Shown piece by piece: positions 4,450-62,285 of a stretch of DNA of 64,000 nt (the first letter of the stretch is position 1; each line of letters begins with the position of its first letter). Position numbers and translations under genes: made by a program. This DNA is from Balneolaceae bacterium (GTDB lineage: Bacteria; Bacteroidota; Rhodothermia; Balneolales; Balneolaceae): contig OZ271855.1 of NCBI GenBank assembly GCA_965601955.1, positions 2,675,553-2,739,552 on the forward strand, in the 5' to 3' direction. Under the pieces are notes generated by a model. That model made no database searches, was not told the DNA's origin, and saw nothing but the letters and a program-made list of their open reading frames with translations.

Positions 4450-4464
4450 TAGTTACTTAAGGGG

Positions 4465-5883: not shown

Positions 5884-5935
5884 GATGACGGGCTAAGAAT
5901 CGCGCTTAATCACTCAAAAAACAAGTGGTGCTTTG

Positions 5936-7930: not shown

Positions 7931-7948
7931 AAAAAAAGGAGAGGTTTT

Positions 7949-8188
7949 TTAAGATAATTTACCAGATAGATAACTTACCGCATCACCCACAGTTGCAATA
8001 TTCTCTGCGTCTTCATCAGGGATGCTTAAATCAAACTCTTTTTCGAATTCCATGATCAATTCCACAGTATCTAAAGAGTCTGCACCAAGATCGTTAGTGA
8101 AGTTTGCATCTGAAGTAACTTCAGATTCATCAACACCTAATTTATCAACGATAATGGCGGTTACTTTTGATTCGACATCTTGTGACAT
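7949..8188 (-). CDS. acpP: acyl carrier protein
   Basis: 79 aa. [12 protein letters not shown] phosphopantetheine-attachment motif. Confidence 0.95.
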
Positions 8189-8272
8189 AATTCGTCCTAT
8201 TGTATTTATTGGTAGTTAGATTAAATAAAAAACTTGTTTAACATAAAAATTCATTTGTGCATCTGCAATAGC

Positions 8273-9022: not shown

Positions 9023-9029
9023 TGTCTAT

Positions 9030-9917: not shown

Positions 9918-9918
9918 T

Positions 9919-10908: not shown

Positions 10909-10918
10909 ATGGAATTTA

Positions 10919-26385: not shown

Positions 26386-26625
26386 TTATGAGGAAGTTTA
26401 CCCGATTACTTAATGAGAGCAGTCCGTCTGTAGTCTTGAATTCAGAGCTATAGTTGGGACAGCAAGTTTCTGGTCTATAACTGTTAACAGCAATGGATGA
26501 AAGATCAACTAGGAATTACTGAATCAAATGTTCAATTCACCTTCCAATTTGTTCAACTCACTTTATTTCTGGCATTAAAATTCTCGAAATCATTGTTCAT
26601 TTGTATTGAATTTCAAATCAATACA

Positions 26626-27306
26626 ATGAATAAAATGAAAACTAAGCTAATAATCGTATGGCTTTGTACAGCTGTCATTTATTTTCTGTTTCTAACATGG
26701 AATGGGTTATTCACAAACCCATTATCAGAACAGGAGATAGAAAAATACATTGAAGTCTTAAAAAAGAATGCCTCTGAAGATGACTTAGAAAACAATTACT
26801 CTGAAGGTGACTTGGAAGAGATACTATCATTCATGCAGGAAGATGACGGTAAACCTATAATTATGGTAAACGCAATCAAACTATATGATACTCCAAAAAT
26901 TGTGAATGGAAAAACTTTCAGTTCCTCCGAAGAAGCTCTTGCCGATTATACGAGTTTTGTAGGACCATATTTACTCAAGAGGGGTAGTTATCCAATATTT
27001 AGTGGAACATCACTAATGGATGCTCCTACAGTGTGGGGAATTGAAAACGCAAAAGAATGGACTACAGCTTCGCTGGTAAGATATAAAAGCCGAAGAGTAA
27101 TGATGGAATTATCTACGGATCCTGTTTTTCAACAATTCCATGATAGTAAAGTAGCAGCTATGGAAAAGACAATGGCTTTTCCAGTACGTTCTGATATTCA
27201 TCTTGTTAATTTAAGCCTGTTTGTAGGACTGTTTTTGACGGTTATTGGATTGGCTATTTCATTGTTTATAGTAAGAAGAAACATTGCTCCTTTTGAAACG
27301 CAATAG
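26626..27306 (+). CDS. hypothetical membrane-anchored protein (N- and C-terminal TM helices)
   Basis: The track ORF starts at 26497. The ATG at 26626 (MNKMKTKLIIVWL...) gives a plausible signal/anchor N-terminus. No recognisable family. Confidence 0.55.
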   Translation: MNKMKTKLIIVWLCTAVIYFLFLTWNGLFTNPLSEQEIEKYIEVLKKNASEDDLENNYSEGDLEEILSFMQEDDGKPIIMVNAIKLYDTPKIVNGKTFSSSEEALADYTSFVGPYLLKRGSYPIFSGTSLMDAPTVWGIENAKEWTTASLVRYKSRRVMMELSTDPVFQQFHDSKVAAMEKTMAFPVRSDIHLVNLSLFVGLFLTVIGLAISLFIVRRNIAPFETQ

Positions 27307-35873: not shown

Positions 35874-38171
35874 ATGAAAACATTTTCTCTTCAACCTGAA
35901 GAACAAGGGCAATCTCCCGATTTTCTAACCGGGCTTAACAAACAGCAGCACGAAGCGGTTACGCATACCAAAGGCCCATTGCTGATTGTAGCGGGAGCTG
36001 GATCAGGAAAGACCAGGGTACTTACCTATCGCATTGCCTATCTGCTGCAACAGTTTAAAGCTGCTCCTCACGAGATTCTGGCCCTTACTTTTACTAATAA
36101 GGCTGCCAGGGAAATGAAAGACCGGATCAAAAACCTGATCGGTGATAAAGCTCAAAAATTATGGATGGGCACCTTCCATTCCATCTTTTCGAAAATACTT
36201 CGTTTTGAAGCTGAAAAACTTGGATATGGTCAGGATTTCACGATTTATGACACCAGTGATTCAGAAACAGTCATTAAGCAAATTCTCCAGGAACTGAATT
36301 TCGATCCCAGGGAAATCAAGCCTAAGACCATTCGGAATAAAATCAGTGATGCCAAGAACCAGTTGATCGATCCGGATAACTACCAGGAACGCTTTGTGAG
36401 CTCTACTCTCGATGACATCACTGCAAGGGTATATGCCATTTACGTGAATCGCCTAAAGCAAAGCAACGCAATGGATTTTGATGATTTACTTGTCAAGCCT
36501 ATTGAGCTTTTTGAAGAACATCCAGATATCCTAGAGAAGTACCAGGATCGTTTTAAATACATCTTAATTGATGAGTACCAGGATACCAATCACGCCCAGT
36601 ACAAAGTGACTAAAATGCTGGCTAATAAGTATAAAAATATCTGCGTGGTTGGGGATGATGCACAAAGTATTTACTCATTCAGAGGTGCAGACATTACCAA
36701 TATCCTTTCTTTCCAGGAGGATTATGACAATGCAAAACAGGTACCATTAGAACAAAATTATCGCTCAACACGAGCTATTCTACAGTGTGCAGATTCTATC
36801 ATCAAAAAGAATAAGAAACAGCTGGAAAAGACGCTCTGGACAGAAAAGGAGCTTGGAGAACCAATCATCCTGCTCAAGAATTATGACGACAGGGATGAAG
36901 CAAACCGGGTAGCCCAATACATCCTGGAGTTGAAAATGCGGCATGGCTATAAAAATAATGAGTTTGCCATCCTGTACCGTACCAATTATCAATCTCGTGT
37001 TTTTGAAGAAGCACTTCGGCGCCACGATATAGCTTACCAGCTCATTGGAGGCCTCTCCTTCTATCAACGAAAAGAGATTAAAGATGTATTAGCCTATCTC
37101 ACGCTCCTGGTCAACAAGCACGATGAAACCAACCTTATTCGAATCATCAATGAGCCTTCGAGAGGAATTGGCAACAAGAGCATCAATGATTTAAGAAATA
37201 CAGCCAGAGAACAGGGAGTTTCTATCTGGAGTATGCTTGAACGGGTTGAGCAAACCGATGTATACAAACCTGCCAAAGTTCGAATCCGTGAATTCGTCAA
37301 TATGATGAATGCCCTGAGCAAGGACTTAAAAGAAGGAAGAAGCCTAACTGAAGTTACCAGATCGGTATTAGAACAAAGTGGATATATGAAGGCTTTGGTA
37401 GAAGAAAATTCTCACGATTCCATGATGCGTAGAGAGAACGTGCTGGAATTTCAGAACGCCATCTCTTATTACGAAAAAGGAGCTTCTAATCCTTCTCTAA
37501 GTGCATTCCTGCAGGAAATCAGCTTGATAACCGACGGCGATAAATTTGACGAAAACAAACCAGCAGTCACATTAATGACCGTTCACGGTTCGAAAGGGCT
37601 GGAATTCCCTGTGGTGTTCGTGGTTGGTTTGGAAGAAAACCTCTTCCCTGTTGGAGCCAGAGATGGTTTTGATGCAGATATTGAAGAAGAACGACGTTTG
37701 TTTTATGTGGCCATCACCAGGGCTGAACAAAGATTGTATTTCAGCTATTGCCAGACCCGTTTCAAGTTTGGAGAAGAGCAACAGCAATTGCGGTCTCGGT
37801 TTCTGGATGAAGTAGATCCTGGCATAGTAAGAACCGAAACGGGAGCAACAATTAGTCAGAGGAAAGATCGTTTCACTCTCGACAATGCATCAACAGAGAA
37901 GAAATCCGGTTTTGCAGATATTGAATATGATTGGGACAAACCCATTACGAAGAAGACAACTTCTTCAGCTACGACAACCATACAATATGACTATCAGGAT
38001 GGAGAGGATCCTTTCCAGGTTGGCGCCCAGGTACTCCATGCCAAGTTTGGTCCTGGAAAAATAATCAGCAGGAGTGGATTAGGAATGGATGCAAAAGTTG
38101 TCGTATTTTTTAAATCAAGAGGACAAAAAAAGCTTATGTTGAGGGCTGCCCCTCTTCAAATCATCGAATAG
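35874..38171 (+). CDS. uvrD: UvrD/PcrA-type SF1 DNA helicase
   Basis: AGAGSGKT, DEYQDTN, VGDDAQSIY, QNYRS, TVHGSKGLEF motifs. The track start 35859 is TTG; the first ATG is at 35874. Confidence 0.9.
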   Translation: MKTFSLQPEEQGQSPDFLTGLNKQQHEAVTHTKGPLLIVAGAGSGKTRVLTYRIAYLLQQFKAAPHEILALTFTNKAAREMKDRIKNLIGDKAQKLWMGTFHSIFSKILRFEAEKLGYGQDFTIYDTSDSETVIKQILQELNFDPREIKPKTIRNKISDAKNQLIDPDNYQERFVSSTLDDITARVYAIYVNRLKQSNAMDFDDLLVKPIELFEEHPDILEKYQDRFKYILIDEYQDTNHAQYKVTKMLANKYKNICVVGDDAQSIYSFRGADITNILSFQEDYDNAKQVPLEQNYRSTRAILQCADSIIKKNKKQLEKTLWTEKELGEPIILLKNYDDRDEANRVAQYILELKMRHGYKNNEFAILYRTNYQSRVFEEALRRHDIAYQLIGGLSFYQRKEIKDVLAYLTLLVNKHDETNLIRIINEPSRGIGNKSINDLRNTAREQGVSIWSMLERVEQTDVYKPAKVRIREFVNMMNALSKDLKEGRSLTEVTRSVLEQSGYMKALVEENSHDSMMRRENVLEFQNAISYYEKGASNPSLSAFLQEISLITDGDKFDENKPAVTLMTVHGSKGLEFPVVFVVGLEENLFPVGARDGFDADIEEERRLFYVAITRAEQRLYFSYCQTRFKFGEEQQQLRSRFLDEVDPGIVRTETGATISQRKDRFTLDNASTEKKSGFADIEYDWDKPITKKTTSSATTTIQYDYQDGEDPFQVGAQVLHAKFGPGKIISRSGLGMDAKVVVFFKSRGQKKLMLRAAPLQIIE

Positions 38172-38188
38172 ACGGTAAATTAAAGATT

Positions 38189-39709
38189 GTGATTAGGATA
38201 GTAAGTGCCATATTAATGGTTCTGGCGGGAATGGTATCTGTCGTAGCTCAGCCTGTGCTTACGCCCAGAAATGTTGCTTTGGGGGGTGGTGGAAGTTCTT
38301 ATCTAACCGACTATTCTGCCAATTTCTATAACCCAGCAAACCTTCTCATCCAGGACAGGCAACGAAATGTTGATTTCGGGCTTTTTATTACAGGCACCTA
38401 TTTCAATGCCGTTCAAAACTTTCGGGATATTGATCAACAATCAGGAAACTTATCTGATTACCTCTCAGCCTTCGAACCTGGTAGATATGCTATTACTGCG
38501 ACCGACAGAGAAGAAATACTGGACGAAAATTATATCCGAGATAGAAATACCTCCCTTCATCAGACACGTTTAGACCTAATATTACTAGGCTTTAAATGGA
38601 GAAATGATGACCGGGCCTTTTCGTTGGCTATTCGCAATCGGATATCATCCAGCTTTGAAGTAGGCCGTGGCTGGTATTCCAATGAATTACAGGAAATTGA
38701 TGGGCTGGAAAGCCTTGATCTCAGTCTTACCCACCGATATCAATCTTTATATGAAGTTTCTTTGGGATACTCAGAGTCTTTTGACTTCTTTTCTGATATG
38801 ACCCCACGATTGGATGAGTTTTACTTCGGAATAGCTCCAAAGCTTGTACTCGGTGGAGCTTACCAGGACGCAAAATGGAAAAATGTGTACTCTTCTACCG
38901 GCGGTACTAATCAATTGATAGAAGAATTTAGATATAATGCATCCGGGAACTTTGGAATAGCTACTGAGCAATACCTGGGTGGAGTAGCTGCAGAAACCGC
39001 GCTGACTCAGAATATCTCGGATGAAATTTTTAATCCCTATGGCATTGGAGCCGGAATCGACATTGGCTTCACTTACCTCGTTACTTTGGGGAGCGATTTA
39101 TCAACTATTAGCGAGAATAATCAGCAAACCAATAAATCCCTGAGGCTCTCCTTCTCCATCACAGATATTGGTTTTGTAAACTATACCGAAAATGGCATTG
39201 ATCTAACTACAGCAAGGGATACTTCTTCGGCACTGTCTATCCCTACTGGAATATCTAATGACGCATTTGTTGGAGCTCCCGGACAGTTTATCGATTACAT
39301 TGACAAATATGTTAGAGAAAATGCTGAAATACAAAACCCCTTCGATCTTGCTCAACGGGAAACAGGCAGTTTTTCGGTATTACTCCCAACCGCTATCCAT
39401 GCCGGGGCTCTCCTGGAAATCAACCGGATTAAATTGATGGGTGATTTAAGCATTGGTTTAACCAATAATGCCTTCAATTCTACAAAACTTGTGGCTTCAG
39501 CGGGAATTGAGATTCGTCCCCTGAAGTTTTTACCCATTCGAGCAGGAACTCAATTAGCTACCGAACTACCCAACTACTTCAGCTTTGGTACTGCCATCGA
39601 AACCCGGCTTTGGGACTTATCCATTGCTACGCAATTTGTTTCCAGGACATTTAGCGACAACCCTACCATCACCGGGGTCACCGTGGCAGCGCTGCAATTT
39701 CATTTCTAA
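38189..39709 (+). CDS. hypothetical outer-membrane beta-barrel protein
   Basis: Signal peptide, alternating beta-strand-like pattern, and a C-terminal aromatic residue (..LQFHF). Confidence 0.55.
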   Translation: MIRIVSAILMVLAGMVSVVAQPVLTPRNVALGGGGSSYLTDYSANFYNPANLLIQDRQRNVDFGLFITGTYFNAVQNFRDIDQQSGNLSDYLSAFEPGRYAITATDREEILDENYIRDRNTSLHQTRLDLILLGFKWRNDDRAFSLAIRNRISSSFEVGRGWYSNELQEIDGLESLDLSLTHRYQSLYEVSLGYSESFDFFSDMTPRLDEFYFGIAPKLVLGGAYQDAKWKNVYSSTGGTNQLIEEFRYNASGNFGIATEQYLGGVAAETALTQNISDEIFNPYGIGAGIDIGFTYLVTLGSDLSTISENNQQTNKSLRLSFSITDIGFVNYTENGIDLTTARDTSSALSIPTGISNDAFVGAPGQFIDYIDKYVRENAEIQNPFDLAQRETGSFSVLLPTAIHAGALLEINRIKLMGDLSIGLTNNAFNSTKLVASAGIEIRPLKFLPIRAGTQLATELPNYFSFGTAIETRLWDLSIATQFVSRTFSDNPTITGVTVAALQFHF

Positions 39710-39825
39710 GCCTGACAGTTTGCCTTGCATCTCTGACAGGAATCGTTTTTCCTGACTCTTTGTAGCAACTCGTAATTATGGCTTCGTGTTTGCGTTTTGG
39801 ATTTCAAATGCTAAAAAAGGACTGA

Positions 39826-42351
39826 ATGAAATTAAGATTAGATTTCGTAGACGATTTTGATCAAAATGATGATAGCTTCGAAGACTTCGAAACATCCATC
39901 CCCTTACTTTCTGAAGAGGAAGAACAAGCCTTAAGCGAGGCAAAAGTACCAGAAACACTTCCTATCCTCCCTCTGAAGAATACCGTTCTTTTCCCCGGAG
40001 TTGTTGTACCCATTACGGTTGGGAGAGACCGTTCACTTGCACTGGTAAAAGAAGCCTATGCTGGTGATAAGACTATTGGGGTGGTTACTCAAAAGGATAT
40101 GGATGTGGAGGAACCGAACTATGAAGATCTATATACTATCGGTACCGTAGCTCAAATCTTAAAGCTCATCAAGATGCCGGATGGCTCCCGAAGCATCGTA
40201 ATCCAGGGGAAATCAGTATTTGAAGTCGAAGAATTCACCCAGGATCAACCGTATTTCCAGGCAAAGGTAAAGCCCTTTCCAAAAGAAATGGATATCCAGG
40301 GTCTTGAACTAAGTGCCTCCATCCGAAATGTGAAGGAAACCGCCGTAGATATCATCAACAAATCTCCCAACATCCCTTCTGAAGCGGCTGTAGCATTAAG
40401 CAACATCAACAGCCCTACTTTTCTGCTCAACTTCATTGCATCCAACCTGAATGTGGATTTGGATGAGAAACAAGACTTACTCGAAACCCCAAAGTTCTCC
40501 ATGAACCTTGAGAAGATCATGGAATTCCTGGAGCAGGAACTCCAGGTTCTAAATATGAGCGAGAAAATCCGAACGAAGGTTAAATCGGATATTGATGATC
40601 AGCAGCGAGAGTTTTACCTGCGTCAGCAAATGAAAGCCATCCAGGAAGAACTGGGTGAAGGTGCTGAACAACAGGAAGTAGATAAGCTTAGAAAAAAGCT
40701 TGAGGAAAAAAAGCTTCCGGATTATGCTCGTGAAGTAGCTGAGAAAGAGCTTCAACGATTGGAGATGACTCCAAATGCTTCTCCAAATTATGGAATTATC
40801 CATGGCTACCTGGAATGGATTTTAGATCTGCCGTGGGAAGAGTATTCTGAAGATAAGCTCGACCTCGAGTTTGCGCGAGCTGTTTTGGATGAAGATCACT
40901 ACGGGTTGGAGAAAGTTAAAAAGAGAATTATTGAGTATCTGGCTGTCCTAAAGCTAAAGCAGGACATGAAAGCCCCAATTTTGTGTTTCTACGGCCCTCC
41001 GGGTGTTGGTAAGACGTCACTTGGTAAATCGATTGCACGTGCCTTAAACAGGGAATTTGAGCGCTTCAGCTTAGGAGGAATCCGTGATGAGGCTGAAATC
41101 CGTGGACACCGAAGAACTTACATTGGCGCCCTTCCTGGTCGAATTATCCGATCGATGAAAAAAGCCGGGAAAGGAAACCCAGTAATTATGCTGGATGAGA
41201 TTGATAAAGTAGGTGCCGATTATCGAGGGGATCCTACCTCTGCCCTGCTTGAAGTATTGGACCCCGAGCAAAACGATACCTTCAGTGACAACTACCTGGA
41301 ACTGGAATATGATCTGTCCAGGGTACTCTTTATTGCTACCGCTAATTCTTTGGAAACTATCCCTGGTCCATTGAGGGACCGTATGGAGATCATTAACATT
41401 AGTGGTTACACGCTTGAGGAGAAATCGGAAATCGCCAAGAAGTACCTGATTCCAAAGCAGATCAAAGAAAACGGGCTAAAAGACGAGCAGATTGAAATCT
41501 CTGAGAAGGCTATTAAGAAAATCATTGATGAATACACCCGTGAATCCGGAGTTCGTAACCTAGACCGCCAGGTTGGAGCCGTTTGCCGCGCAGTAGCAGC
41601 AAAAGTCGCTTCCGGTGAGCTGGAGCAATATAGCGTTGACGTTCCCGATATCGAGGACTTCCTGGGCAAACAAAAGTTCTATAGTGATATAGCGGAACGC
41701 ACCACGGTTCCCGGTGTGGCTACCGGACTAGCCTGGACTCCTTTTGGTGGAGATATCCTTTTCATTGAAGCCAGTGTTTCAAGAGGATCAGGAAAGCTAA
41801 ATATTACCGGTCAGCTTGGAGATGTGATGAAGGAATCGGCCATGCTTGCCATCTCTTACCTGAAAGCCCACGCTGAAACCACTGGTATTCCAGAAGAAGC
41901 CTTCAAATATTGGGATTTACATATCCATGTGCCCGCAGGAGCCGTTCCTAAAGACGGCCCTAGCGCTGGTGTCTCGTTGATGAGCGCGATTGCTTCCATC
42001 TTCACCCAGAGAAAAGTAAAAGGAACGGTTGCCCTTACCGGTGAGATCACCTTGAGAGGCCTTGTTCTTCCTGTTGGAGGGATTAAGGAAAAAGTATTGG
42101 CAGCCAAGCGTGCCGGCATCAAAAAAGTCCTTCTGCCTAAAAAGAATGAAAAAGATGTATCCGAAATAGAAACGGATGTAATCGGCAACCTGGAAGTGGA
42201 CTACCTCGAACGAATGGATTCGTTACTGGATATCATCCTCGAAAAAGACGCCGTACGAGATGTGAAAGAGTTCTTCAAAGTGAGTGATGCCCATCGAAAA
42301 GCGGTGGCGGGCAAGAATGGAAAAGAGGAAGTGAGTAAAGTGGAGAGTTGA
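39826..42351 (+). CDS. lon: ATP-dependent Lon protease
   Basis: 841 aa. Walker A GPPGVGKTS and catalytic-Ser context PKDGPSAG. Confidence 0.95.
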   Translation: MKLRLDFVDDFDQNDDSFEDFETSIPLLSEEEEQALSEAKVPETLPILPLKNTVLFPGVVVPITVGRDRSLALVKEAYAGDKTIGVVTQKDMDVEEPNYEDLYTIGTVAQILKLIKMPDGSRSIVIQGKSVFEVEEFTQDQPYFQAKVKPFPKEMDIQGLELSASIRNVKETAVDIINKSPNIPSEAAVALSNINSPTFLLNFIASNLNVDLDEKQDLLETPKFSMNLEKIMEFLEQELQVLNMSEKIRTKVKSDIDDQQREFYLRQQMKAIQEELGEGAEQQEVDKLRKKLEEKKLPDYAREVAEKELQRLEMTPNASPNYGIIHGYLEWILDLPWEEYSEDKLDLEFARAVLDEDHYGLEKVKKRIIEYLAVLKLKQDMKAPILCFYGPPGVGKTSLGKSIARALNREFERFSLGGIRDEAEIRGHRRTYIGALPGRIIRSMKKAGKGNPVIMLDEIDKVGADYRGDPTSALLEVLDPEQNDTFSDNYLELEYDLSRVLFIATANSLETIPGPLRDRMEIINISGYTLEEKSEIAKKYLIPKQIKENGLKDEQIEISEKAIKKIIDEYTRESGVRNLDRQVGAVCRAVAAKVASGELEQYSVDVPDIEDFLGKQKFYSDIAERTTVPGVATGLAWTPFGGDILFIEASVSRGSGKLNITGQLGDVMKESAMLAISYLKAHAETTGIPEEAFKYWDLHIHVPAGAVPKDGPSAGVSLMSAIASIFTQRKVKGTVALTGEITLRGLVLPVGGIKEKVLAAKRAGIKKVLLPKKNEKDVSEIETDVIGNLEVDYLERMDSLLDIILEKDAVRDVKEFFKVSDAHRKAVAGKNGKEEVSKVES

Positions 42352-42394
42352 TTAGTTAGGCTCTCTCATGAGCTATTTGTAACTATACAAAAAA

Positions 42395-44320
42395 ATGAGA
42401 ATTACGAAAGTTGATATCCCAAAATCTGAAAAGGATCTAGATGGACTCGAAGAGATAAAAATGTCCCGGTTAGGACAAATCGTTCTCTTGGCTGGAAAGA
42501 ATGGCTCTGGAAAGACACGGATACTCGATAAGATCCTGAACAGATTAGCCTTAAAGCCGTCGAAGAACGATTTAGAAAATGCAAGAAAACAGATCGAAAA
42601 TTCAAAAGACCGTATTACATCGCTAGAGAACGCTATTGAATCATTAGAATCTGAACTAAAAAGAGCAATAGACCCTACTCAAATTTACTCTATCAATCGG
42701 GATATCAAGAATTTTTCCGATTCAATTGCAAACTATGAGCAACAAGTTGAAAAGCACTATACTACTTTAAGTTGGAAACAAATAGAAACAAAAGGATTAA
42801 AAGAGAGATATACAGCTGTACATTTTGTCCCTAAAGAATTAAACCTCTATGACAGCAATAATTATAACAAAACTCAAATCCTAAGAGAAGCTAATACTGT
42901 TAGTAATGTTGGAGTTGATGGACTATCACGTGGCACGTTTGCTAAAATTCAGGTTATACAAGACCGTTGGTTCAATGCGACACATCACAGATCACAAGTT
43001 AATGAGGAGGAAAAAAACAAGGCAATTAGTGAATATGAAAAACTTAATGATCTAGTTTCCATATTCTTAAATACCTCGATAGGGCGTACAATTAATGATG
43101 AAGCTACACTTTTTGGCTTTCCACTTGGGAAATCAAAACTATCTGATGGACAGAAAATATTACTTCAATTTTGCTTAGCAATCTATGGTCAAGAGACAAA
43201 ACTTAAAGATTTAGTCCTAATAATGGATGAGCCTGAAAATCATCTCCACCCTTCTGCAATTATTGAGACTCTAGATCGAATCGCCAAGTACGTTTCTAAT
43301 GGTCAGATATGGATTGCAACCCACTCCGTCCCCCTACTTGCACATTACGATCCATCACTAATCTGGTTTGTTGAAAACAACAAAGTAAGTTATGGAGGAA
43401 GAATAACTGAAAAGGTTTTAAGAAGTTTGCTTGGTGATGAAAACGAAATAGCTAGACTTCAAGATTTCGTAAGTCTCCCCGCTCAGTTTGCAACTTCTAG
43501 ATATGCTTTTGAATGTTTGTTTGAACCAAAAACACTCCAAACTGATTCAAATGACCCACAATCAGTTCAAATAAGGGAAGAGTTACTTAAACTAACAACT
43601 ACTGGAAAAATTCGTGTTCTTGATTTCGGTGCAGGTAAAGGTAGAATTATATCGAATCTTATCGATCTTGATAGCGAAACGCAAAAGCATCTTGTAGATC
43701 AATTGGACTATATCGCCTTTGATCCTGATTCCAAAGACAAAGAGTATTGTGAGAGTGCTATTTCAAAGGCATATGGAAACTGTAACAATCGATATTTTAA
43801 CTCACTTGATAAGCTGCTTGAGATTTATGACAAAGAGTCTTTCAATGTAGTAATACTGTGTAATGTCTTACATGAAATTGATCCTAAGGAATGGCTTAAG
43901 CTTTTTTCTCCAGAAGGTAGTATTTCACAATTATTAGGTAGTAAAGGATTTCTTTTGCTTGTGGAAGATCACCAAATTTCGATTGGTGAAAAAGCTTATC
44001 AAAAAGGATTTTTGGTATTGGACACGCTACAACTAAAAGAAATATTTAAAATAACAGAACAGGATGAAGGCTTTACTTTTGTAGATGCCCGAAAAGATGG
44101 GAGATTAAAAGCTCATTTAATCGCAAAAGAGTATTTGATGAGAATAGATGAAAACTCACGCCTAGATGCATTGAAGTCAATTTGTCAAACTGCAAAAAGT
44201 AAAATACTTGAGATTAGAGAGGATGAAAAAAACTACAGGAATGGAAAAAAACATGGATTCTGGGTTCAACAACTTGCGAATGCACAGTTGAATCTAGACG
44301 AGTTTACAACAAAAAAGTAA
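42395..44320 (+). CDS. ABC/SMC-type (AAA_15/AAA_21-like) ATPase fused to a class I SAM-dependent methyltransferase; function unknown
   Basis: Walker A GKNGSGKT (aa 34-41), LSDGQ (aa 249-253), LVLIMDEPENHLHP (aa 273-286), IATHS. MTase motif I VLDFGAGKG (aa 408-416), IAFD, VVILCNVLHEI. AT-rich relative to its neighbours. Confidence 0.65.
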   Translation: MRITKVDIPKSEKDLDGLEEIKMSRLGQIVLLAGKNGSGKTRILDKILNRLALKPSKNDLENARKQIENSKDRITSLENAIESLESELKRAIDPTQIYSINRDIKNFSDSIANYEQQVEKHYTTLSWKQIETKGLKERYTAVHFVPKELNLYDSNNYNKTQILREANTVSNVGVDGLSRGTFAKIQVIQDRWFNATHHRSQVNEEEKNKAISEYEKLNDLVSIFLNTSIGRTINDEATLFGFPLGKSKLSDGQKILLQFCLAIYGQETKLKDLVLIMDEPENHLHPSAIIETLDRIAKYVSNGQIWIATHSVPLLAHYDPSLIWFVENNKVSYGGRITEKVLRSLLGDENEIARLQDFVSLPAQFATSRYAFECLFEPKTLQTDSNDPQSVQIREELLKLTTTGKIRVLDFGAGKGRIISNLIDLDSETQKHLVDQLDYIAFDPDSKDKEYCESAISKAYGNCNNRYFNSLDKLLEIYDKESFNVVILCNVLHEIDPKEWLKLFSPEGSISQLLGSKGFLLLVEDHQISIGEKAYQKGFLVLDTLQLKEIFKITEQDEGFTFVDARKDGRLKAHLIAKEYLMRIDENSRLDALKSICQTAKSKILEIREDEKNYRNGKKHGFWVQQLANAQLNLDEFTTKK

Positions 44321-44509
44321 GGAGTGATTTTCCAATTTCGACTCGTAACGTAGCTCTGCTGCGTGACACTATTGATAAAGCTCTGCTCCAGGCACTACTA
44401 CCCTTCTCCACAGATGCTGATCCTGAAAACTTTCGGGACAGCATTACAACCTCCAAATCAGAAGGCTAACCCATACGTAAATCAATAGGCTCCTGCCCTA
44501 CCCTTAGCC

Positions 44510-46189
44510 TCAGAACAAACCTGATATTACTCCATCTTCATCTACCGTCATATTAACTGCTGCAGGTACTTTAGGCAGGCCTGGCATCAGCATCATATTT
44601 CCACAAATAATTACAAGGAACCCTGCTCCTGCAGAAAGTTGTACATCGCTAACTGTGAATGTGAATCCTTTCGGAGCTCCTCGCAAAGCAGGATTGTCTG
44701 AAAATGAAGATTGTGTTTTGGCAATACACACCGGAAGATCTCCATAACCAAGATCCTTAAACCGCTTCAGATTTTGTAAGGCTTTCTTTTCGAAATAAAC
44801 TACAGCTGCTCCATAGACTTTTCGGGCTACAGCTTTGATTTTATCTTCAATAGAGTCAGCTGCTTCATATAAGGTTCTCGTATCTGGAGATGGATTGCGA
44901 TCTACTGCATTCACGACCAGTTTGGCGAGACCGGTTACTCCCTCTCCTCCTTTCGCAAAAGCTTCATGGGTAGCGCAAGGCACATTCAACGACGCACAAA
45001 AGTTTTCTACATAAGAAAGCTCATCGGGATTATCGACTTCAAAACGATTAACAGCTACCACTACGGGTACATTAAATAATTTCAAATGATGTATATGTGC
45101 CTCCAGGTTCTTTAAGCCTTCTGTGAGCGCTTCATGATCCGGGGTTCCACCTGAAGCTTCCTCTACTGATAAACCCCCGTGGTATTTTAAGGCCTTAATC
45201 GTAGCCACCAGTACTACTGCTGAAGGCCATATTCCCGAAACGGGACTCACTATATCGAAGAACTTCTCTGCTCCAAGATCTGCACCAAAACCAGCTTCAG
45301 TAATCACATAATCAGCTAGTTTAAGCCCTATTCGGTTGGCTATTATACTGCTTGTTCCATGCGCTATATTTGCGAAAGGCCCACCATGAACCAGTGCAGG
45401 AACATGTTCCATGGTTTGCACCAGGTTAGGCATGATTGCTTCATTCAACACAACGGCCATTGCTTCATGTGCGCCCAGGTCCTTGGCTTGAACTGCCTCT
45501 CCTTTTCGGTTATACCCAACTACAATCCGCCCAAGCCGTTCTTTAAGATCTGCACGGGAAGATGATAGCGAAAGAATGGCCATAATCTCTGAAGCTGCGG
45601 TAATAAGAAACCCTGATTCCCTTGGTATACCATTTACTCTACCCCCAAGACCCACTACGATCTGCCTCAAAGCACGATCATTCATATCCATAGCCCGGTT
45701 CCAAAGCGGGTTTGTTACATCAATATCCAACTCATTTCCTTTGAAAATATGATTATCGAGCATGGCCGCCAGCAAATTATGTGCTGTTCCAATCGCATGA
45801 ATATCTCCATTAAAATGCAGGTTGATCCGTTCCATAGGAATCACCTGGGAATAACCTCCACCTGCCGCACCCCCTTTTATCCCAAAAACGGGTCCCAATG
45901 ATGGTTCCCGGAGTGTTACCATCACCTTTTTCCCGATCTTTGCCATACCCTGGCTTAGTCCAATGGATGTAAGGGTCTTTCCCTCACCAGTCGGGGTTGG
46001 AGTAATCGCCGTTACAAGGATAAGTTTGCCATTGGGCCTGTTTTCAAATTTCTCTAGAACATTCAGCCTTATCTTCCCGGTGTATTTTCCATAGAACTCA
46101 AAATTTTCCTCGTCCAGCTCAAGTTGCGACATAAAATGACGCATGTGTTTCATAGGCGCCTGCTGCGCCAATTTTATGCTGTCAGTCAT
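44510..46189 (-). CDS. fhs: formate-tetrahydrofolate ligase
   Basis: 559 aa. PTPTGEGKT P-loop-like motif and overall FTHFS-type sequence. Confidence 0.95.
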   Translation of the reverse strand: MTDSIKLAQQAPMKHMRHFMSQLELDEENFEFYGKYTGKIRLNVLEKFENRPNGKLILVTAITPTPTGEGKTLTSIGLSQGMAKIGKKVMVTLREPSLGPVFGIKGGAAGGGYSQVIPMERINLHFNGDIHAIGTAHNLLAAMLDNHIFKGNELDIDVTNPLWNRAMDMNDRALRQIVVGLGGRVNGIPRESGFLITAASEIMAILSLSSSRADLKERLGRIVVGYNRKGEAVQAKDLGAHEAMAVVLNEAIMPNLVQTMEHVPALVHGGPFANIAHGTSSIIANRIGLKLADYVITEAGFGADLGAEKFFDIVSPVSGIWPSAVVLVATIKALKYHGGLSVEEASGGTPDHEALTEGLKNLEAHIHHLKLFNVPVVVAVNRFEVDNPDELSYVENFCASLNVPCATHEAFAKGGEGVTGLAKLVVNAVDRNPSPDTRTLYEAADSIEDKIKAVARKVYGAAVVYFEKKALQNLKRFKDLGYGDLPVCIAKTQSSFSDNPALRGAPKGFTFTVSDVQLSAGAGFLVIICGNMMLMPGLPKVPAAVNMTVDEDGVISGLF

Positions 46190-46281
46190 GATATTTTCCG
46201 GTTATTCGTAGTAGTTTCAAGATGAAAACAATATGATACTCTGATATGAATTTTTGATAAACCCAAACAAGACCCTGGATT

Positions 46282-46302
46282 ATTCAAGTCTGTGACTTGA
46301 AT
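46282..46302. repeat. perfect 9-bp-stem palindrome ATTCAAGTC-tgt-GACTTGAAT (copy 1 of a shared element)
   Basis: Read directly. Contains AGTCtgtGACT. Confidence 0.7.
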
Positions 46303-46315
46303 GAATGAGCCCAGG

Positions 46316-46361
46316 AAGTCTCTGACTCCCATTACTTTATTCGAGTAATAGTCTCAGACTT
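46316..46361. repeat. long imperfect hairpin; each arm carries an AGTC-N3-GACT palindrome
   Basis: Positions 46316-46327 pair with 46350-46361 (10/12). Positions 46331-46336 pair with 46344-46349 (6/6). 3-nt bulge and 7-nt loop. Confidence 0.65.
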
Positions 46362-46418
46362 GTTTATCTTCACGCTTAATCTCCGTTATGTAACAGCCAA
46401 TAAAACCACAGAGGAACC

Positions 46419-46808
46419 ATGAGTGAAGAAACAACAAACTACATAGATGGCTTTGTACTTCCTGTTCCACGAATTCACCTGGACGAATACAAGAATGTGG
46501 CTTCTCAAGTAGCCGAAATTTGGAAGGAGTATGGTGCACTCTCCTACTTTGAATATGTTGGTGAGGACTTGACGTTGGAAGGCATTCGTTCATTCATAGA
46601 AGCTGTAGATGCAAAAGAAGATGAAGTCGTTGTATTTGGCTGGGTCGTCTTTCCTTCAAAAGAGATTCGTGATTTAGCGAATCAACAAGTTCCAGCCGAC
46701 CCAAGAATGACTGAATTGGTTACTCCACTACTTGATCCTCAAAGATTAATTTTTGATGCCGCTCGTATGGTCTATGGAGGATTTGAACCCCTTGTTCAAT
46801 CGAATTAA
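46419..46808 (+). CDS. DUF1428 family protein
   Basis: 129 aa. N-terminal YIDGFVLPVP and overall resemblance to YbaA/DUF1428 proteins. Confidence 0.65.
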   Translation: MSEETTNYIDGFVLPVPRIHLDEYKNVASQVAEIWKEYGALSYFEYVGEDLTLEGIRSFIEAVDAKEDEVVVFGWVVFPSKEIRDLANQQVPADPRMTELVTPLLDPQRLIFDAARMVYGGFEPLVQSN

Positions 46809-46827
46809 TAACTAATCAAACAAAGAT

Positions 46828-47343
46828 ATGGAGCAAATACGGTGGTTTGATCGGAAGTTCGATTTTTCGTTTCAGCAAAATATTTTTCCTTCAATTTTCG
46901 AACGGCTTAGTGGAACCTATGTACGGTTAACATCAAAGATTGAAGGCATTTCTCCCGAGTTATTGGAAATCAAGCCAAACGAAACATGGTCTATAAAGGA
47001 GAATATTGGACACTTATGCGATTTAGAACCATTATGGCAAGGTAGACTGGAAGACATTATACATGGAGAGAAGTATTTAAGACCCACCGATCTGGAAAAC
47101 AAGAAAACCGATTTTGCACAACACAACAAAACGAGTATTGAGGATTTGTTGATGCAATTTCGAGAAGTACGAGAAGAGACTCTACAACAATTATCAAAGC
47201 TTGAGGAGGCAGATGTGTTTAAATCTGCACTGCACCCTCGACTAGAGCAGCCCATGCGAACTATGGACTTATTCCTATTTGTTGCTGAACACGATGATCA
47301 CCACCTGGCAAGGATTACTGAGATTAAAGCCGGCCACTACTGA
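46828..47343 (+). CDS. DinB-family (DinB_2) metal-dependent protein
   Basis: 171-aa four-helix-type sequence with IGHLCD and EHDDHH His motifs. Confidence 0.7.
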   Translation: MEQIRWFDRKFDFSFQQNIFPSIFERLSGTYVRLTSKIEGISPELLEIKPNETWSIKENIGHLCDLEPLWQGRLEDIIHGEKYLRPTDLENKKTDFAQHNKTSIEDLLMQFREVREETLQQLSKLEEADVFKSALHPRLEQPMRTMDLFLFVAEHDDHHLARITEIKAGHY

Positions 47344-47367
47344 GGCGCAGTAATTAACTCCCACCCT

Positions 47368-47394
47368 ATTCATTCAAGTGTGACTGGAATGAAT
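47368..47394. repeat. palindrome ATTCATTCAAGT-gtg-ACTGGAATGAAT (copy 2 of the shared element)
   Basis: 11/12-bp stem. 24 of 27 positions match copy 1 at 46282, with a 2-nt loop indel. Confidence 0.65.
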
Positions 47395-47462
47395 AAGTAC
47401 TATACCTCCATTCCCTTTTTTATATTCGACTAATCAGAACTAAGACATAAAGGGACCTGAAC

Positions 47463-47927
47463 ATGTACCATGTACTTTTAGTGAGTCATTCCGTATTCCG
47501 TTGGCTGGTATTGATCAGCTTAATCATCTCCATCATTCTTGCGATTAGGGGCTGGGTAACTAAAAAGAAGTTCGATACCCTGGATAACCGGTTCAGGAAT
47601 TGGACAGTCTCGTTAGTACACATTCAATTCTTAATCGGGATCGTCTTATATAGCATAAGCCCAATCATCCATTACTTTTTTGAAAACTTCGGGGAAGCCG
47701 TCAAGATTAGTGATATTCGTTTTTTTGCAATGGAGCATAGCCTTATGATGATATTGGCTGTTGGGTTAATCACTTTTGGGTCCTCCTCTGCAAAAAGAAA
47801 AACCGAGGATATAGCCAAGTTCAAAACAATGACCATTTGGTTTCTCATAGGGCTCATTGTCATCCTGGTAAATATTCCGTGGGAGTTTTCGCCATATGTA
47901 AGCCGTCCTCATTTTAGATTCTTCTAG
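47463..47927 (+). CDS. hypothetical 4-TM membrane protein
   Basis: 154-aa hydrophobic ORF. Its stop directly abuts the start of the next gene. Confidence 0.55.
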   Translation: MYHVLLVSHSVFRWLVLISLIISIILAIRGWVTKKKFDTLDNRFRNWTVSLVHIQFLIGIVLYSISPIIHYFFENFGEAVKISDIRFFAMEHSLMMILAVGLITFGSSSAKRKTEDIAKFKTMTIWFLIGLIVILVNIPWEFSPYVSRPHFRFF

Positions 47928-48446
47928 ATGGAAACCCGGCGGCTAAAGCTAAGGCTCATTACTGAAGATGATGCGTACTTCCTCTTCAGATTGATGAACA
48001 CAGAAAAATGGCACCTCAACATTGGAGATAGAAATATCACTAATGACGATCGTGCTAGGGAGTATATCAAAGATCGTATGAGCCCAAAATTAGAGGAAAA
48101 AGGTTTTATTAATCACGTTATGATTGAGAAGAAATCAGGAGAAGCTGTGGGCACATGCAGTATCCACGATAGAAAAGGAGTAGAAGGTTTGGATATCGGG
48201 TATGCCCTTCTTTCAGAATATGAAGGGCAAGGATATGCTACAGAAGGTGCTTCTTTGATGGTAGAAATGGCTTTTGAGAGATTCAACCAACAGGAAATAA
48301 GTGCCATTACTACTGATGGAAATATTGGCTCCTGTAAAGTGTTAGAGAGATTAGGCTTTCAACACCACTCTTATATTAAACTTCCTAATAGCAATGAGGA
48401 GATTAAGCTTTATGTGTTAGGGAGAAAAGAGTTTGAAGAGGGCTAA
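47928..48446 (+). CDS. GNAT family N-acetyltransferase (RimJ/RimL-like)
   Basis: 172 aa. Acetyl-CoA motif context YEGQGYATEGA. Confidence 0.75.
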   Translation: METRRLKLRLITEDDAYFLFRLMNTEKWHLNIGDRNITNDDRAREYIKDRMSPKLEEKGFINHVMIEKKSGEAVGTCSIHDRKGVEGLDIGYALLSEYEGQGYATEGASLMVEMAFERFNQQEISAITTDGNIGSCKVLERLGFQHHSYIKLPNSNEEIKLYVLGRKEFEEG

Positions 48447-48495
48447 TCAGTTTCGGTCATTCCGTCCCGACCCTCTTTTATTCCAGTGACCTCAA

Positions 48496-48969
48496 TCACT
48501 CTAACTCATACCACTCCTCTTCGGTAGCCATCTTAACCTGGTATTCCATCATCATTTTCCATGAGCCCGAAGCTTTTGAGCTAAGGGATTCGAAATGGAT
48601 ATACACTGTTTGAGCTTCCTGCCCTTCGTTCTGAGAGGAATATTTAAAAATCCCGGTTTCATGTGCCGTCATCGGACTGATCAGTCTTTCTGAAAACCTG
48701 AACTCTACACTGGCCTTCATTTTTCCGGCTTTGGTATCATCAAAACCCTGTTTCCAGCCGCTTAATGCATTGGCAATTGGATAACTATTTTTAGCTATGC
48801 CATTAACAAGGATGGCATCCGTGTGAAAAGTGGCGCTATAACCCTCAAAATCTCCCTCTGCTACTGTTCTTGAGACTTCCTTCCAAAACTCATCAATATC
48901 AGTTTGAGCTAATAATCCTGTTCCTGTGATTAGTAACGTGAAAATGATTGAAGAAATAATCCGCTTCAT
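48496..48969 (-). CDS. secreted NTF2/SnoaL-like (DUF4440-like) protein
   Basis: Signal peptide plus a domain of about 130 aa with an NTF2-like pattern. The assignment is weak. Confidence 0.45.
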   Translation of the reverse strand: MKRIISSIIFTLLITGTGLLAQTDIDEFWKEVSRTVAEGDFEGYSATFHTDAILVNGIAKNSYPIANALSGWKQGFDDTKAGKMKASVEFRFSERLISPMTAHETGIFKYSSQNEGQEAQTVYIHFESLSSKASGSWKMMMEYQVKMATEEEWYELE

Positions 48970-49042
48970 AAAACCCCATTTTTTTGCTGAATATAGCAGA
49001 ATAGGATTTAATTCCTGCTTTTCTTTGCCTTATTTTCAGCCC

Positions 49043-49948
49043 ATGCAAAAAGGCCGAGTCATACAATCAACCGGAAGCTGGTATAAAATTGATACCGGAG
49101 AAACTATTATTGAGAGCCGGTTACCCGGAAGATTCAGGCTTGAGGAGAAAGAAGTCACCAATCCTATTGCCGTCGGAGATTGGGTAACCATATCAGTAAA
49201 TGATGACGATACCGGCACTATTGAAGAAATCCATGAACGAACAAATTATATCACCCGGCAGGCTACTCATGGCCGAAGAGGTGAACATATCCTCGTTTCT
49301 AACCTGGATATAGCTTTTGTGGTTCAATCGGTGAAACGGCCCAAGTTAAAAGAAGGGTTTATCGATCGGTTTTTAGTCACTTGCGAAGCCTATGAGGTAC
49401 AAGGTGCTATTATTATCAATAAACTGGATTTGGCTACTCAAAGAGATGAAAGTATGATCGAAGATATCCAGGATATTTATGAAGAGCTTGGATACCCTGT
49501 ATTTACTACTGTGGCTCATGATCCAGAGTGTCTACATACTCTAAGAGAAACACTGACTGGGAAAACATCTGTGTTTATTGGCCCTTCCGGGGTTGGAAAG
49601 ACCAGCCTCTTAAATGCACTAGACTCCAATTATTCTGAAAAAGTGGGTGAAGTTTCTTCTTACTCTAATAAAGGAAAACACACGACTACCTTTGCCAAGC
49701 TGATCAGGCTTTCGAATGGTGGATACCTGGCAGATACCCCAGGAATACGAGAGTTTGGGCTGTATAATATTGAGCCCTGGGAGCTTTCTCTTTATTTCCC
49801 GGAAATGCTTGAACCCAGAAAGCATTGCAAATTCAATAACTGTACTCACCTTCATGAACCCAATTGCGGAGTTATAGAAGCATTTGAGCGTGGAGAGATC
49901 GAGCCGAGCCGCTACGATTCATACATTAGAATGCTGGAATCTTTATAA
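49043..49948 (+). CDS. rsgA: ribosome small-subunit-dependent GTPase A
   Basis: Circularly permuted GTPase: NKLD then GPSGVGKTSLLNAL. Zinc knuckle CKFNNCTHLHEPNCGV. The track ORF start 48926 overlaps the neighbouring gene; the ATG at 49043 gives the MQKGRVIQSTG OB-fold N-terminus. Confidence 0.85.
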   Translation: MQKGRVIQSTGSWYKIDTGETIIESRLPGRFRLEEKEVTNPIAVGDWVTISVNDDDTGTIEEIHERTNYITRQATHGRRGEHILVSNLDIAFVVQSVKRPKLKEGFIDRFLVTCEAYEVQGAIIINKLDLATQRDESMIEDIQDIYEELGYPVFTTVAHDPECLHTLRETLTGKTSVFIGPSGVGKTSLLNALDSNYSEKVGEVSSYSNKGKHTTTFAKLIRLSNGGYLADTPGIREFGLYNIEPWELSLYFPEMLEPRKHCKFNNCTHLHEPNCGVIEAFERGEIEPSRYDSYIRMLESL

Positions 49949-61073: not shown

Positions 61074-62285
61074 ATGAGCTATTCGAATTTTTTTATAGGA
61101 TTATTAATTGTACTCCTTACTCAATCCAACGCATCAAATGCACAACAACCTTATTTATTGACAATCTTTCCTGATGCGGAAACTGTGATTTCTTCAGGCA
61201 CGTTTACTGCGCTTCCATCGGATATACCATCTTCCTTTTTTTATAATCCGGCTCAACTGGGAAATTTTGGAGCAATACAGAAGGTCTCTTTACAGTATTT
61301 ACCTGGTGGAAATCAATGGCTTTTTGATGGTATCAGAATGGAAAATTTTGCTTTAACTGGAGGATATTCAATCCCAAATACTCCATTAAATTTTGGTATC
61401 GGTATCATCAGGAATGAGATTGATTTTGGCAAAATCGATGTTAGGGCACCTGATTTGGAAATCATTGACAGGTTATCAACTTTTGATCGTCATACTACGT
61501 TTGGGATGGGTATTCAGCTCGACCATATACTGAAATTAAATGTTGGATATTCCTATAAAGTTATCCGCATACATCGTGATGTAGACGATACAAGAACTTC
61601 TGGGCATGACCTAGGAATTCAAGCAGGATATACAAAAAAAATAAATGATTTTTCTTTAGTAGTTAATCTTGGCTATTCAATCAGAAATGAAGGAAAATCT
61701 TTTATCCAGAGTAACGAAGGTTTGATTGAGCTCTATAGAAATGCGGGATATGATTACCCGGATGATTTCACCGGATTTACTCACTATTTACCTCGAACAC
61801 AGACACTAGGATACTCTTTAGGCTTCGATTATTCCGGCAATATTTTTAACAGAGAAAAAACGATTATTTCTCTAAACTGGACCGTGGACGCCACTAAAGA
61901 TGTACTTCGGCCTTTTACAAACGAACCAGCAATAAGAAACCTGAATTTAAAAGATTTAGCTGGAAATCTCATCGAAGCATCTACTGATATTGACACAGAA
62001 ATAAATATGGGAATAAGGATTGGTTTGATGGAAAGTCTGACTATCGGAGGCGGGAGGAACCTGAAATATAGGTTTCAAAACCCAGTTTATACTGCTGGTT
62101 TTTCAATCAATGTGCTTGAGATAGCTCAGTTCTTTTATGACCCCTCGCCTAATAAACCCATGAGCTATGTCTTAAAGCATTTTGACGCAAGTTTCAGTTA
62201 TGCTGTTTATATAGAAAATGAGGATAGATCTGGTCTTGATGGTCAAAATTTGAGCAGCATTGTAATTCGATATTCATTCTTTTAG
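61074..62285 (+). CDS. hypothetical outer-membrane beta-barrel protein
   Basis: Signal peptide (..SNASNA/QQ) and the C-terminal aromatic signature ..IRYSFF. Confidence 0.5.
   Translation: MSYSNFFIGLLIVLLTQSNASNAQQPYLLTIFPDAETVISSGTFTALPSDIPSSFFYNPAQLGNFGAIQKVSLQYLPGGNQWLFDGIRMENFALTGGYSIPNTPLNFGIGIIRNEIDFGKIDVRAPDLEIIDRLSTFDRHTTFGMGIQLDHILKLNVGYSYKVIRIHRDVDDTRTSGHDLGIQAGYTKKINDFSLVVNLGYSIRNEGKSFIQSNEGLIELYRNAGYDYPDDFTGFTHYLPRTQTLGYSLGFDYSGNIFNREKTIISLNWTVDATKDVLRPFTNEPAIRNLNLKDLAGNLIEASTDIDTEINMGIRIGLMESLTIGGGRNLKYRFQNPVYTAGFSINVLEIAQFFYDPSPNKPMSYVLKHFDASFSYAVYIENEDRSGLDGQNLSSIVIRYSFF

Follow-up and report, generated by a model that had tools for sequence, protein, structure and literature searches.

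What is the function of a gene that fuses an ATPase to a methyltransferase and that stands between lon and fhs in a member of the Balneolaceae? The gene lies on a stretch of 64,000 nucleotides (nt) from a Balneolaceae bacterium (assembly GCA_965601955.1, contig OZ271855.1, forward-strand positions 2,675,553 to 2,739,552), hereafter the window. Its open reading frame (ORF), taken from the window ORF list, runs from 42395 to 44320 on the forward strand, starts with ATG and encodes 641 amino acids (aa). A preliminary description, drawn from the bare sequence, had read the product as an ATPase of the ATP-binding cassette (ABC) type joined to a class I S-adenosylmethionine (SAM) methyltransferase. 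Arithmetic on the translation places the ORF and every motif named there at the residues and nucleotides where that description had put them. Our analysis indicates that the gene belongs to a horizontally transferred family, and we lean, if not strongly, towards the interpretation that its product is a self-contained conflict system made of a single polypeptide and directed against phages or other mobile elements. The coordinates of all features are collected in Table 1.

The N-terminal half is an ABC ATPase of the AAA_21/AAA_15 (PtuA/AriA/OLD-like) group with a coiled-coil hairpin, in agreement with the type first assigned from its motifs. Both Pfam models pass their gathering thresholds over aa 31-315 (AAA_21, E = 1.3e-13, 52.2 bits against 27; AAA_15, E = 2.6e-10, 40.9 bits against 32.1), and a weak match to SMC_N was also obtained. 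The Walker A sequence GKNGSGKT (aa 34-41, nt 42494-42517) is followed by the ABC signature LSDGQ (aa 249-253), by the Walker B/D-loop segment LVLIMDEPENHLHP (aa 273-286), which contains DEPENHLHP, and by the H-loop IATHS (aa 307-311). Residue conservation was assessed from 70 diverse members of the family representing many phyla. The residues of these four elements are kept at 98-100%, and S250, G252, D278, E279, P280, E281, H285, T309, H310 and S311 are present in all 70 sequences; conservation is lower (70-72%) for Q186 and Q189, the glutamines proposed for the Q-loop. The PADLOC profiles matched aa 1-330 only. The best of them were AriA (E = 1.7e-18, aa 30-315), PtuA (E = 2e-17) and mad3 (E = 5e-16), and further matches confined to the ATPase were obtained for AbiLi, GajA (E = 1.8e-11) and Old (E = 2.3e-9). 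A Foldseek search with the full-length model returned PtuA of the retrons Ec83, Ec78 and Eco7 and of Septu as the best matches in the PDB (E = 3.5e-7 and weaker).

The full-length AlphaFold model, for which the alignment input was built from substrings of database hits, has a mean predicted local distance difference test score (pLDDT) of 82.8. It is laid out as an ABC head, a coiled coil, a low-confidence linker, a Rossmann domain (aa ~388-577) and a helical hairpin (aa 586-638). The coiled coil is formed by two helices (aa 57-90 and 94-125) with pLDDT above 90, and this is where the members of the family differ most: its mean pairwise identity is 0.21, against 0.53-0.78 in every other region. 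Many of the family profile alignments break exactly at this point. At the DNA level, the coiled coil could not be aligned with the gene for a homologue of 66% aa identity (P0005, locus L092), although both of its flanks are about 71% identical. We propose that the hairpin serves as a trigger-sensing or oligomerization arm.

The C-terminal half had been taken for a class I methyltransferase that more probably acts on a substrate other than DNA, and our results agree with both parts of this assignment. Modelled alone, it is predicted with confidence to be a class I, Rossmann-fold SAM methyltransferase (pLDDT 87.7; predicted template modelling score 0.87). At E<=1e-3, Foldseek matched it to 238 PDB chains, of which the best 50 were all SAM methyltransferases or proteins of the methyltransferase fold, with no DNA methyltransferase among them. 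These 50 include AprA MT2, TrmK, METTL6, TcaB9/KijD1, UbiG, phosphoethanolamine methyltransferases, Trm14 and 16S rRNA methyltransferases of the Kmr type. A search of the family profile against PDB sequences likewise yielded AprA MT2 (E = 4e-4), with which motif I and the NVLH motif align. The Pfam methyltransferase models cover aa 397-524 below their gathering thresholds (Methyltransf_23, 24.2 bits against 27; Methyltransf_12, 22.9 against 30; Methyltransf_31, 21.1 against 27; Methyltransf_25, 19.9 against 27), and homologues bear precomputed matches to PF13489, PF08242 and PF13847.

The sequence elements of this domain are motif I, VLDFGAGKG (aa 408-416, nt 43616-43642), IAFD (aa 440-443) and VVILCNVLHEI (aa 485-495), the motif after strand β4 being LCNVLHEIDP at 43856-43885. 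Motif I, N490/H493/E494 and E524/D525 are kept at 95-100% across the 70 sequences. Indeed, G412, G414, R417, V491, E494, E524, G531, E532 and G538 are invariant, N490, H493 and H574 reach 98%, and D443 reaches 85%. This half also presents a conserved loop, GEKAxxxGF, that is specific to the family. Judged by the conservation of these residues, both domains appear to be catalytically competent. We rejected an assignment to the DNA methyltransferases based on the sequence CNVLHEIDP after β4, with N490, H493 and E494 conserved as above, and on the lack of a target-recognition domain.

Two additional elements are conserved outside the catalytic domains. The linker between them is predicted to be disordered in the monomer, its least confident part (aa 349-382) corresponding to window positions 43439-43540, and it is nonetheless conserved as strongly as the catalytic cores. 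It may therefore serve as a contact surface or have an autoinhibitory or regulatory role, and take on order only in an oligomer or in an inhibited state. The second element lies at the C-terminus, where the preliminary description had noted an uncharacterised tail of about 110 aa. The first part of this tail proved to belong to the methyltransferase fold; only aa ~586-638 lie outside it, as an additional helical hairpin that is conserved and over which no Pfam family matched. Within this hairpin, R608 (95%), G617 (98%), F622 (90%), W623 (91%), Q626 (91%), A628 (95%) and N629 (98%) stand out across the 70 sequences.

The gene is not an orphan, as had been supposed at first. By a word-indexed search, we found more than 120 homologues that cover the full length of about 640 aa, at 53-71% identity. 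They are named 'AAA family ATPase', 'predicted ATPase', 'hypothetical protein' or ABC-transport ATPase, to which some names add 'SAM-dependent methyltransferase'. In an exhaustive profile search, the representatives of 807 clusters, formed at 50% identity, matched at E<=1e-30, and a further 271 hits lie between E 1e-30 and 1e-10. The fused architecture was found in all of the best 150 of these 807 clusters, some hits being truncated; neither an ATPase with another effector nor a split form was present among these best 150. At least 238 pattern-matched stretches encode a relative among 185,579 species genomes (one per species). Host phyla comprise Bacteroidota, Ignavibacteria, Acidobacteriota, Pseudomonadota (Alpha-, Beta- and Gammaproteobacteria), Campylobacterota, Verrucomicrobiota, Planctomycetota, Myxococcota, Fibrobacterota and Bacillota. 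This patchy spread across phyla indicates frequent horizontal transfer, and we count the sporadic distribution, which is typical of defence genes, in favour of a conflict system.

The suggestion that the fusion is undescribed was borne out by the sources that we consulted. The best PADLOC profile covers the ATPase only (E 1e-18), every NCBIfam match is far under its cut-off, and the fusion is described nowhere in PADLOC v2, NCBIfam r20, Pfam or the literature searched, which did not extend to the survey of ABC ATPases by Krishnan et al. (2020), where it may be listed. Two metagenome-assembled genomes (MAGs) were found to carry two copies of the fusion gene each, with about 45% identity between copies: a Noviherbaspirillum MAG (L080 and L083) and a rumen alphaproteobacterial MAG (L071 and L084). 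In a check for diversification within genomes, the paired copies of both MAGs proved to be divergent paralogues and not recent duplicates. This suggests independent acquisitions, unless the pairs are a binning artefact.

Comparison with related genomes shows that the gene was inserted at its present place. By their sequences, fhs and lon assign the window to Balneola or Balneolaceae. The closest relative (locus L088) is collinear with the window, and its Lon is 98% identical in amino acids. Using blastn, its positions 4067-10521 aligned with window 35874-42346 and its positions 10578-11565 with window 46323-47335, at about 85% nt identity, and only 56 bp stand there in place of 3,976 bp in the window. 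The gene order of the relative is lon-DUF1428-DinB; in the window, DUF1428 lies at 46419-46808 and DinB at 46828-47343. The fusion gene is absent from all three of the closest genomes (Lon 98%, 90% and 89% identical), and we conclude that it was horizontally acquired.

It is this comparison with the loci of relatives, and not composition, that establishes the insertion. The sliding-window content of guanine plus cytosine (GC) is 0.33-0.38 across 42.5-44.2 kb, against 0.42-0.50 in the flanks. The gene as a whole has a GC content of 0.351 (z = -2.3 relative to 50 window genes, mean 0.411), and its GC content at third codon positions (0.268) is the lowest of these 50 genes. Two further window genes are about equally AT-rich, however, so that composition alone is only suggestive of acquisition. 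The preliminary description had pictured a low-GC islet of a single gene that starts 43 nt past the lon stop and converges with fhs. The low GC, the placement and the insertion all agree with our results; 'single-gene' is not strictly right, because fhs lies in the same inserted segment.

We then analyzed the context of the family in other genomes by all-against-all clustering of ORFs from 81 loci and by Pfam, PADLOC and PHROGs scans of 138 immediate neighbours. Neither approach revealed a conserved partner: no gene accompanies the fusion gene throughout the 81 loci, the commonest neighbour cluster being present in 10 of them, and the scans of the 138 neighbours gave the same answer. The lack of a nuclease or other partner observed in the window thus extends to the family, and the unit is a single gene. 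In addition, nucleotide similarity between the window gene and the homologous loci stops at the boundaries of the ORF. Defence genes are found among the neighbours. PADLOC identified mad3 (three times) and mad8 (twice) of the methylation-associated defence system (MADS), NsnA/NsnB of Menshen (twice), S and R subunits of type I restriction-modification (RM) systems, a DRT reverse transcriptase, GajA, ThsB and type II RM genes, and Pfam added neighbours of the defence type (GmrSD, ResIII, TIR_2 and AlwI). At one locus, the fusion gene lies between GmrSD and two AbiEi/AbiEii pairs and adjoins a VapE primase; at another, it lies beside umuDC and excisionase-like genes. Finally, two IMG/VR contigs (L094 and L096) present tape measure, tail assembly and tail protein genes followed by the fusion gene, which lies some 2.5 kb short of the contig end. 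This placement after the tail genes in two prophages is the classic position of a prophage moron. Together, these neighbourhoods suggest, without proving it, that the family is associated with defence islands.

Do these proteins belong to a known system? The N-terminal half resembles PtuA of Septu and of type I-A retrons (Ec78/Eco7, Ec83) in its ABC head with a coiled-coil insertion, which Foldseek aligned over about 400-500 columns (E 3.5e-7 to 1e-4), in its match to the PADLOC PtuA profile, and in the expected role of an ATP-regulated scaffold or sensor for an effector. In contrast to PtuA, the effector of the window protein is fused and is a predicted methyltransferase instead of a nuclease; the identity is only 12-17%, and NCBIfam NF041760 scores 20.1 bits against a cut-off of 500. 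We detected no PtuB HNH gene in the window or in the 81 loci, and no HNH family among the 25 Pfam families listed for the genes at positions +-1. The AriA ATPase of PARIS gave the best PADLOC match and shares the DEPExHLHP type of Walker B/D-loop, as well as a weak sequence match in the PDB (8ux9/8v45, E = 0.06) and the concept of a trigger-sensing ATPase that releases or activates an effector (PMC11464382). Unlike PARIS, the window protein is a single polypeptide for which methyl transfer is predicted, and neither it nor its neighbours in the window contain an AriB/TOPRIM domain. The OLD and Gabija (GajA) proteins also combine an ATPase of the AAA_15/AAA_21 type with a C-terminal enzymatic effector; theirs is a TOPRIM domain and not a Rossmann methyltransferase, and no helicase partner similar to GajB accompanies the window gene.

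MAD3 of MADS shares with our protein a weak ATPase similarity (PADLOC E 5e-16; NCBIfam E 4e-13) and the theme of an ATPase linked to methylation, and true mad3 genes are neighbours at three loci. NF047739, however, scores 49.2 bits against an equivalog cut-off of 420, and MADS is encoded by an operon of several genes in which the DNA methyltransferase and the nuclease components are separate; neither these nor any other mad gene is present in the window. Membership in Septu, PARIS, Gabija and MADS was therefore rejected, since their defining partners or domains (PtuB HNH, AriB TOPRIM, fused TOPRIM and the mad operon) are absent. Among methyltransferases, the closest group is that of Methyltransf_11/12/23/25/31 (AprA MT2, UbiG, TcaB9, TrmK and METTL6), with which the window protein shares the Rossmann fold, the GxGxG motif I, the acidic end of β2 and the 'NVLH' motif after β4 that aligns with AprA MT2; it differs from this group by its scores below gathering, its GEKAxxxGF loop, its C-terminal hairpin and its fusion to an ABC ATPase. 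Two further labels were discarded. Some homologues are labelled by JGI as subunits of an ABC transporter; ABC_tran reaches 24.3 bits against 25 on aa 26-135 only, the head is of the coiled-coil AAA_21 kind, and no permease or other neighbour is common to more than 10 of the 81 loci. An ABC-F protein would have two tandem ABC domains and not one, and the ABC-F models score 27-33 bits against cut-offs of 380-680.

These results are consistent with the following mechanism, of which we infer the defensive role, the direction of regulation and the substrate. The PtuA/AriA-like ABC ATPase would form ATP-dependent head-to-head dimers or higher oligomers, with the hypervariable coiled-coil arm as the surveillance surface and the fused class I SAM methyltransferase, with its conserved, lid-like C-terminal hairpin, as the effector. 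As long as the protein is at rest, the methyltransferase would be restrained by the conserved linker and the state of the ATPase. A cue from an invader would be sensed by engagement of the heads together with the coiled coil and relayed by the linker, which would release the methyltransferase, and methylation of the target would halt the infection. The target might be RNA of the translation apparatus or, alternatively, a phage component or a small molecule. Assuming a defensive role, our tentative choice, itself open to considerable doubt, is RNA of the translation apparatus, because PtuAB and PARIS effectors attack tRNA and because tRNA and rRNA methyltransferases are among the structural neighbours. 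PtuAB of Retron-Eco7 degrades tRNA-Tyr (PMC12673091), and PARIS, composed of the AriA ATPase and the AriB nuclease, is neutralised by a viral tRNA (PMC11464382).

Several observations weigh against a role in conflict. The majority of the loci are flanked by ordinary housekeeping genes, such as those for ribonucleotide reductase, H+-pyrophosphatase, AdoHcy hydrolase and a tRNA synthetase, and the association with defence islands is therefore partial. Searches of 72,556 plasmids and of 50,697 phage records with tblastn yielded no homologue, and just 4 of 2.9 million IMG/VR contigs bear a member of the family. Coiled coils change rapidly whether or not selection favours diversity. The nearest structures are a mix of small-molecule, tRNA and rRNA methyltransferases with template modelling scores of about 0.45, and the substrate is not readable from sequence or fold. 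Finally, in no established defence system known to us is the effector a class I methyltransferase of a non-DNA type. An enzyme for accessory modifications in the cell, outside immunity, would fit the many loci among housekeeping genes. Its ATPase would engage or remodel the ribosome, a tRNA or a protein complex, or gate a small molecule, its methyltransferase would carry out the modification, and a niche benefit such as tolerance to antibiotics or stress would drive its spread. The structural neighbours do include 16S rRNA methyltransferases of aminoglycoside resistance (Kmr, an A1408 N1-methyltransferase), tRNA methyltransferases (TrmK, METTL6 and Trm14) and small-molecule enzymes, and in the window the gene follows lon by 43 nt with no terminator between. 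Weak NCBIfam matches to ABC-F ribosome-protection proteins point in the same direction, but their scores are far below the cut-offs given above, and the ATPase, with its single ABC domain and coiled coil, falls in the PtuA/AriA/AAA_21 clade and not with ABC-F. Since a hypervariable coiled coil, defence neighbours and the moron position would be unexpected for a metabolic or resistance enzyme, we regard this explanation as rather unlikely.

It is also conceivable that the system is directed at DNA: a head and coiled coil similar to those of SMC and ABC proteins would scan DNA, and an atypical methyltransferase would modify it in an orphan epigenetic or anti-restriction role that protects the element or the host genome. 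Coiled-coil ABC ATPases commonly act on DNA, and the weak SMC_N match, the weak similarity to mad3 and the three loci where mad3 is a neighbour all accord with this possibility. Against it stand the invariant NVLHE after β4 in place of a DPPY/NPPY or PCQ motif, the lack of a target-recognition domain, the absence of DNA methyltransferases from the best 50 of the 238 PDB neighbours and that of a conserved cognate nuclease from the 81 loci, which together make it improbable. We attach a similarly small probability to a selfish or counter-defence gene of mobile elements, one that modifies a host factor for the benefit of the element by disabling a host immune pathway or by excluding competitors. 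Such a gene could explain the moron position in L094 and L096, the fact that the fusion gene is the only ORF common to loci whose flanks are not conserved, and the sporadic distribution, but not so readily the rarity of the family on viral contigs, its absence from the plasmid and phage collections or the lack of an integrase, terminal repeats or a target-site duplication beside the window gene. Moreover, prophage morons of this kind are usually genes for defence against superinfection, and for this reason the selfish gene merges into the interpretation that we favour, a single-polypeptide conflict system.

The segment that was inserted downstream of lon also has a history of its own. The fhs gene has a native-like composition and appears displaced: in four relatives, it adjoins either an icmF-like MM_CoA_mutase/MeaB gene (L085-L087) or a DAO gene (L091) and never lon. 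Sequence similarity to these relatives spans fhs from its stop codon to a point about 70 nt before its start, and no further. It may be that fhs was relocated first or that both genes moved together. The junctions of the segment present no repeats, integrase or tRNA, and the region around 42200-46500, searched for terminal inverted repeats and target-site duplications, yielded only short repeats at chance level. The spacer between the two convergent stops showed no similarity to the compared loci or to the rest of the window and no convincing terminator. A scan of 42000-46600 for promoters and terminators gave counts no higher than those of shuffled sequence, and no terminator was detected between lon and the fusion gene. 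In the relative that is closest by its fhs, a Balneola MAG, a gene for a 481-aa AAA_13/SMC_N ATPase lies between the icmF-like gene and fhs (L085 5299-6744, reverse strand) and is absent from L086 and L087; it is a second, different insertion of an ABC-type ATPase beside fhs.

Among Balneolaceae, gene content is hypervariable from lon to rsgA, and the absence of the fusion gene from the sister genomes is part of this variation. In the window (42347-49050), the interval holds the ATPase-methyltransferase gene, fhs, DUF1428, DinB and GNAT genes. In L088, it holds DUF1428, DinB, a short-chain dehydrogenase, a hypothetical gene, AraC and GNAT genes; in L089, a PF10136 site-specific recombinase, APH, DUF3667, inositol phosphatase and GIY-YIG genes; and in L090, a single small gene. 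A DUF559/MTES_1575 gene, with a Vsr-like endonuclease fold, is located between valS and uvrD in genome CP051242 (L089 3597-3974) and is absent from the window and from L088. Elsewhere in the window, three AT-rich genes may be further acquisitions: 26497-27306 (GC 0.340) and 61074-62285 (GC 0.363), both without a Pfam match, and 58-744 (GC 0.355), with a weak match to HD_assoc_2.

Table 1. Features of the fusion gene and of its surroundings, in window coordinates.
Feature	Position	Strand	Basis and remarks
Fusion gene, ABC ATPase/class I methyltransferase	42395..44320	+	ORF list; homologue searches (>120 of full length, 53-71% identical; 807 clusters at E<=1e-30)
ATPase head, N-terminal lobe, aa 1-54, with Walker A GKNGSGKT	42395..42556	+	AAA_21/AAA_15 Pfam matches; G34, G39 and K40 at 100% in 70 members
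Antiparallel coiled-coil hairpin, hypervariable, aa 55-130	42557..42784	+	AlphaFold model; mean pairwise identity 0.21
ATPase head, remainder, aa 131-335: LSDGQ 43139-43153, LVLIMDEPENHLHP 43211-43252, IATHS 43313-43327	42785..43399	+	Conservation; Foldseek
Interdomain linker, aa 336-395, conserved, predicted disordered in monomer	43400..43579	+	Mean pairwise identity 0.71; pLDDT <50 for aa 349-382
Predicted class I SAM methyltransferase domain, aa 396-580	43580..44134	+	Domain model, Foldseek, family profile, conservation
C-terminal helical hairpin, aa 581-641, without Pfam family	44135..44317	+	AlphaFold helices 586-608 and 614-638
Segment replaced by 56 bp in closest relative L088; holds fusion gene and fhs	42347..46322		blastn; 3,976 bp
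lon, conserved upstream anchor of the variable region	39826..42351	+	Product 98% identical to P0241; order uvrD-DUF5723-lon common to L088, L089 and L090
Spacer between convergent stops of fusion gene and fhs	44321..44509		189 nt
fhs (formate-tetrahydrofolate ligase), native-like composition, displaced	44510..46189	-	GC 0.449; 94% protein identity to fhs of a Balneola MAG

Locally, these results show that the region downstream of lon is hypervariable among Balneolaceae and that the housekeeping gene fhs was relocated into it, which is unusual. For the family as a whole, the proposed coupling of an ABC-ATPase sensor to an effector has precedents, whereas a fused methyltransferase effector would be unprecedented: to our knowledge, the effector of ABC-ATPase immune systems (Septu, PARIS, Gabija, OLD and type I-A retrons) is always a nuclease. 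On the most far-reaching interpretation, which we think unlikely, this would be the first case of an ABC-ATPase immune sensor whose effector arm works by methylation; the protein would sense infection through its coiled coil and ATPase cycle and methylate tRNA, rRNA or a phage macromolecule, giving a nuclease-free, reversible or non-destructive abortive infection across phyla. Without a defensive role, the family would still represent an ATP-gated methyltransferase that is uncharacterised and has been transferred widely. If it is a defence system, it would bring a new effector chemistry to bacterial immunity and would assign a function to hundreds of proteins that are labelled only 'AAA family ATPase'. 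It would also be a compact system of one gene, easy to test and possibly engineerable, in which the coiled coil sets the specificity and the methyltransferase gives the output.

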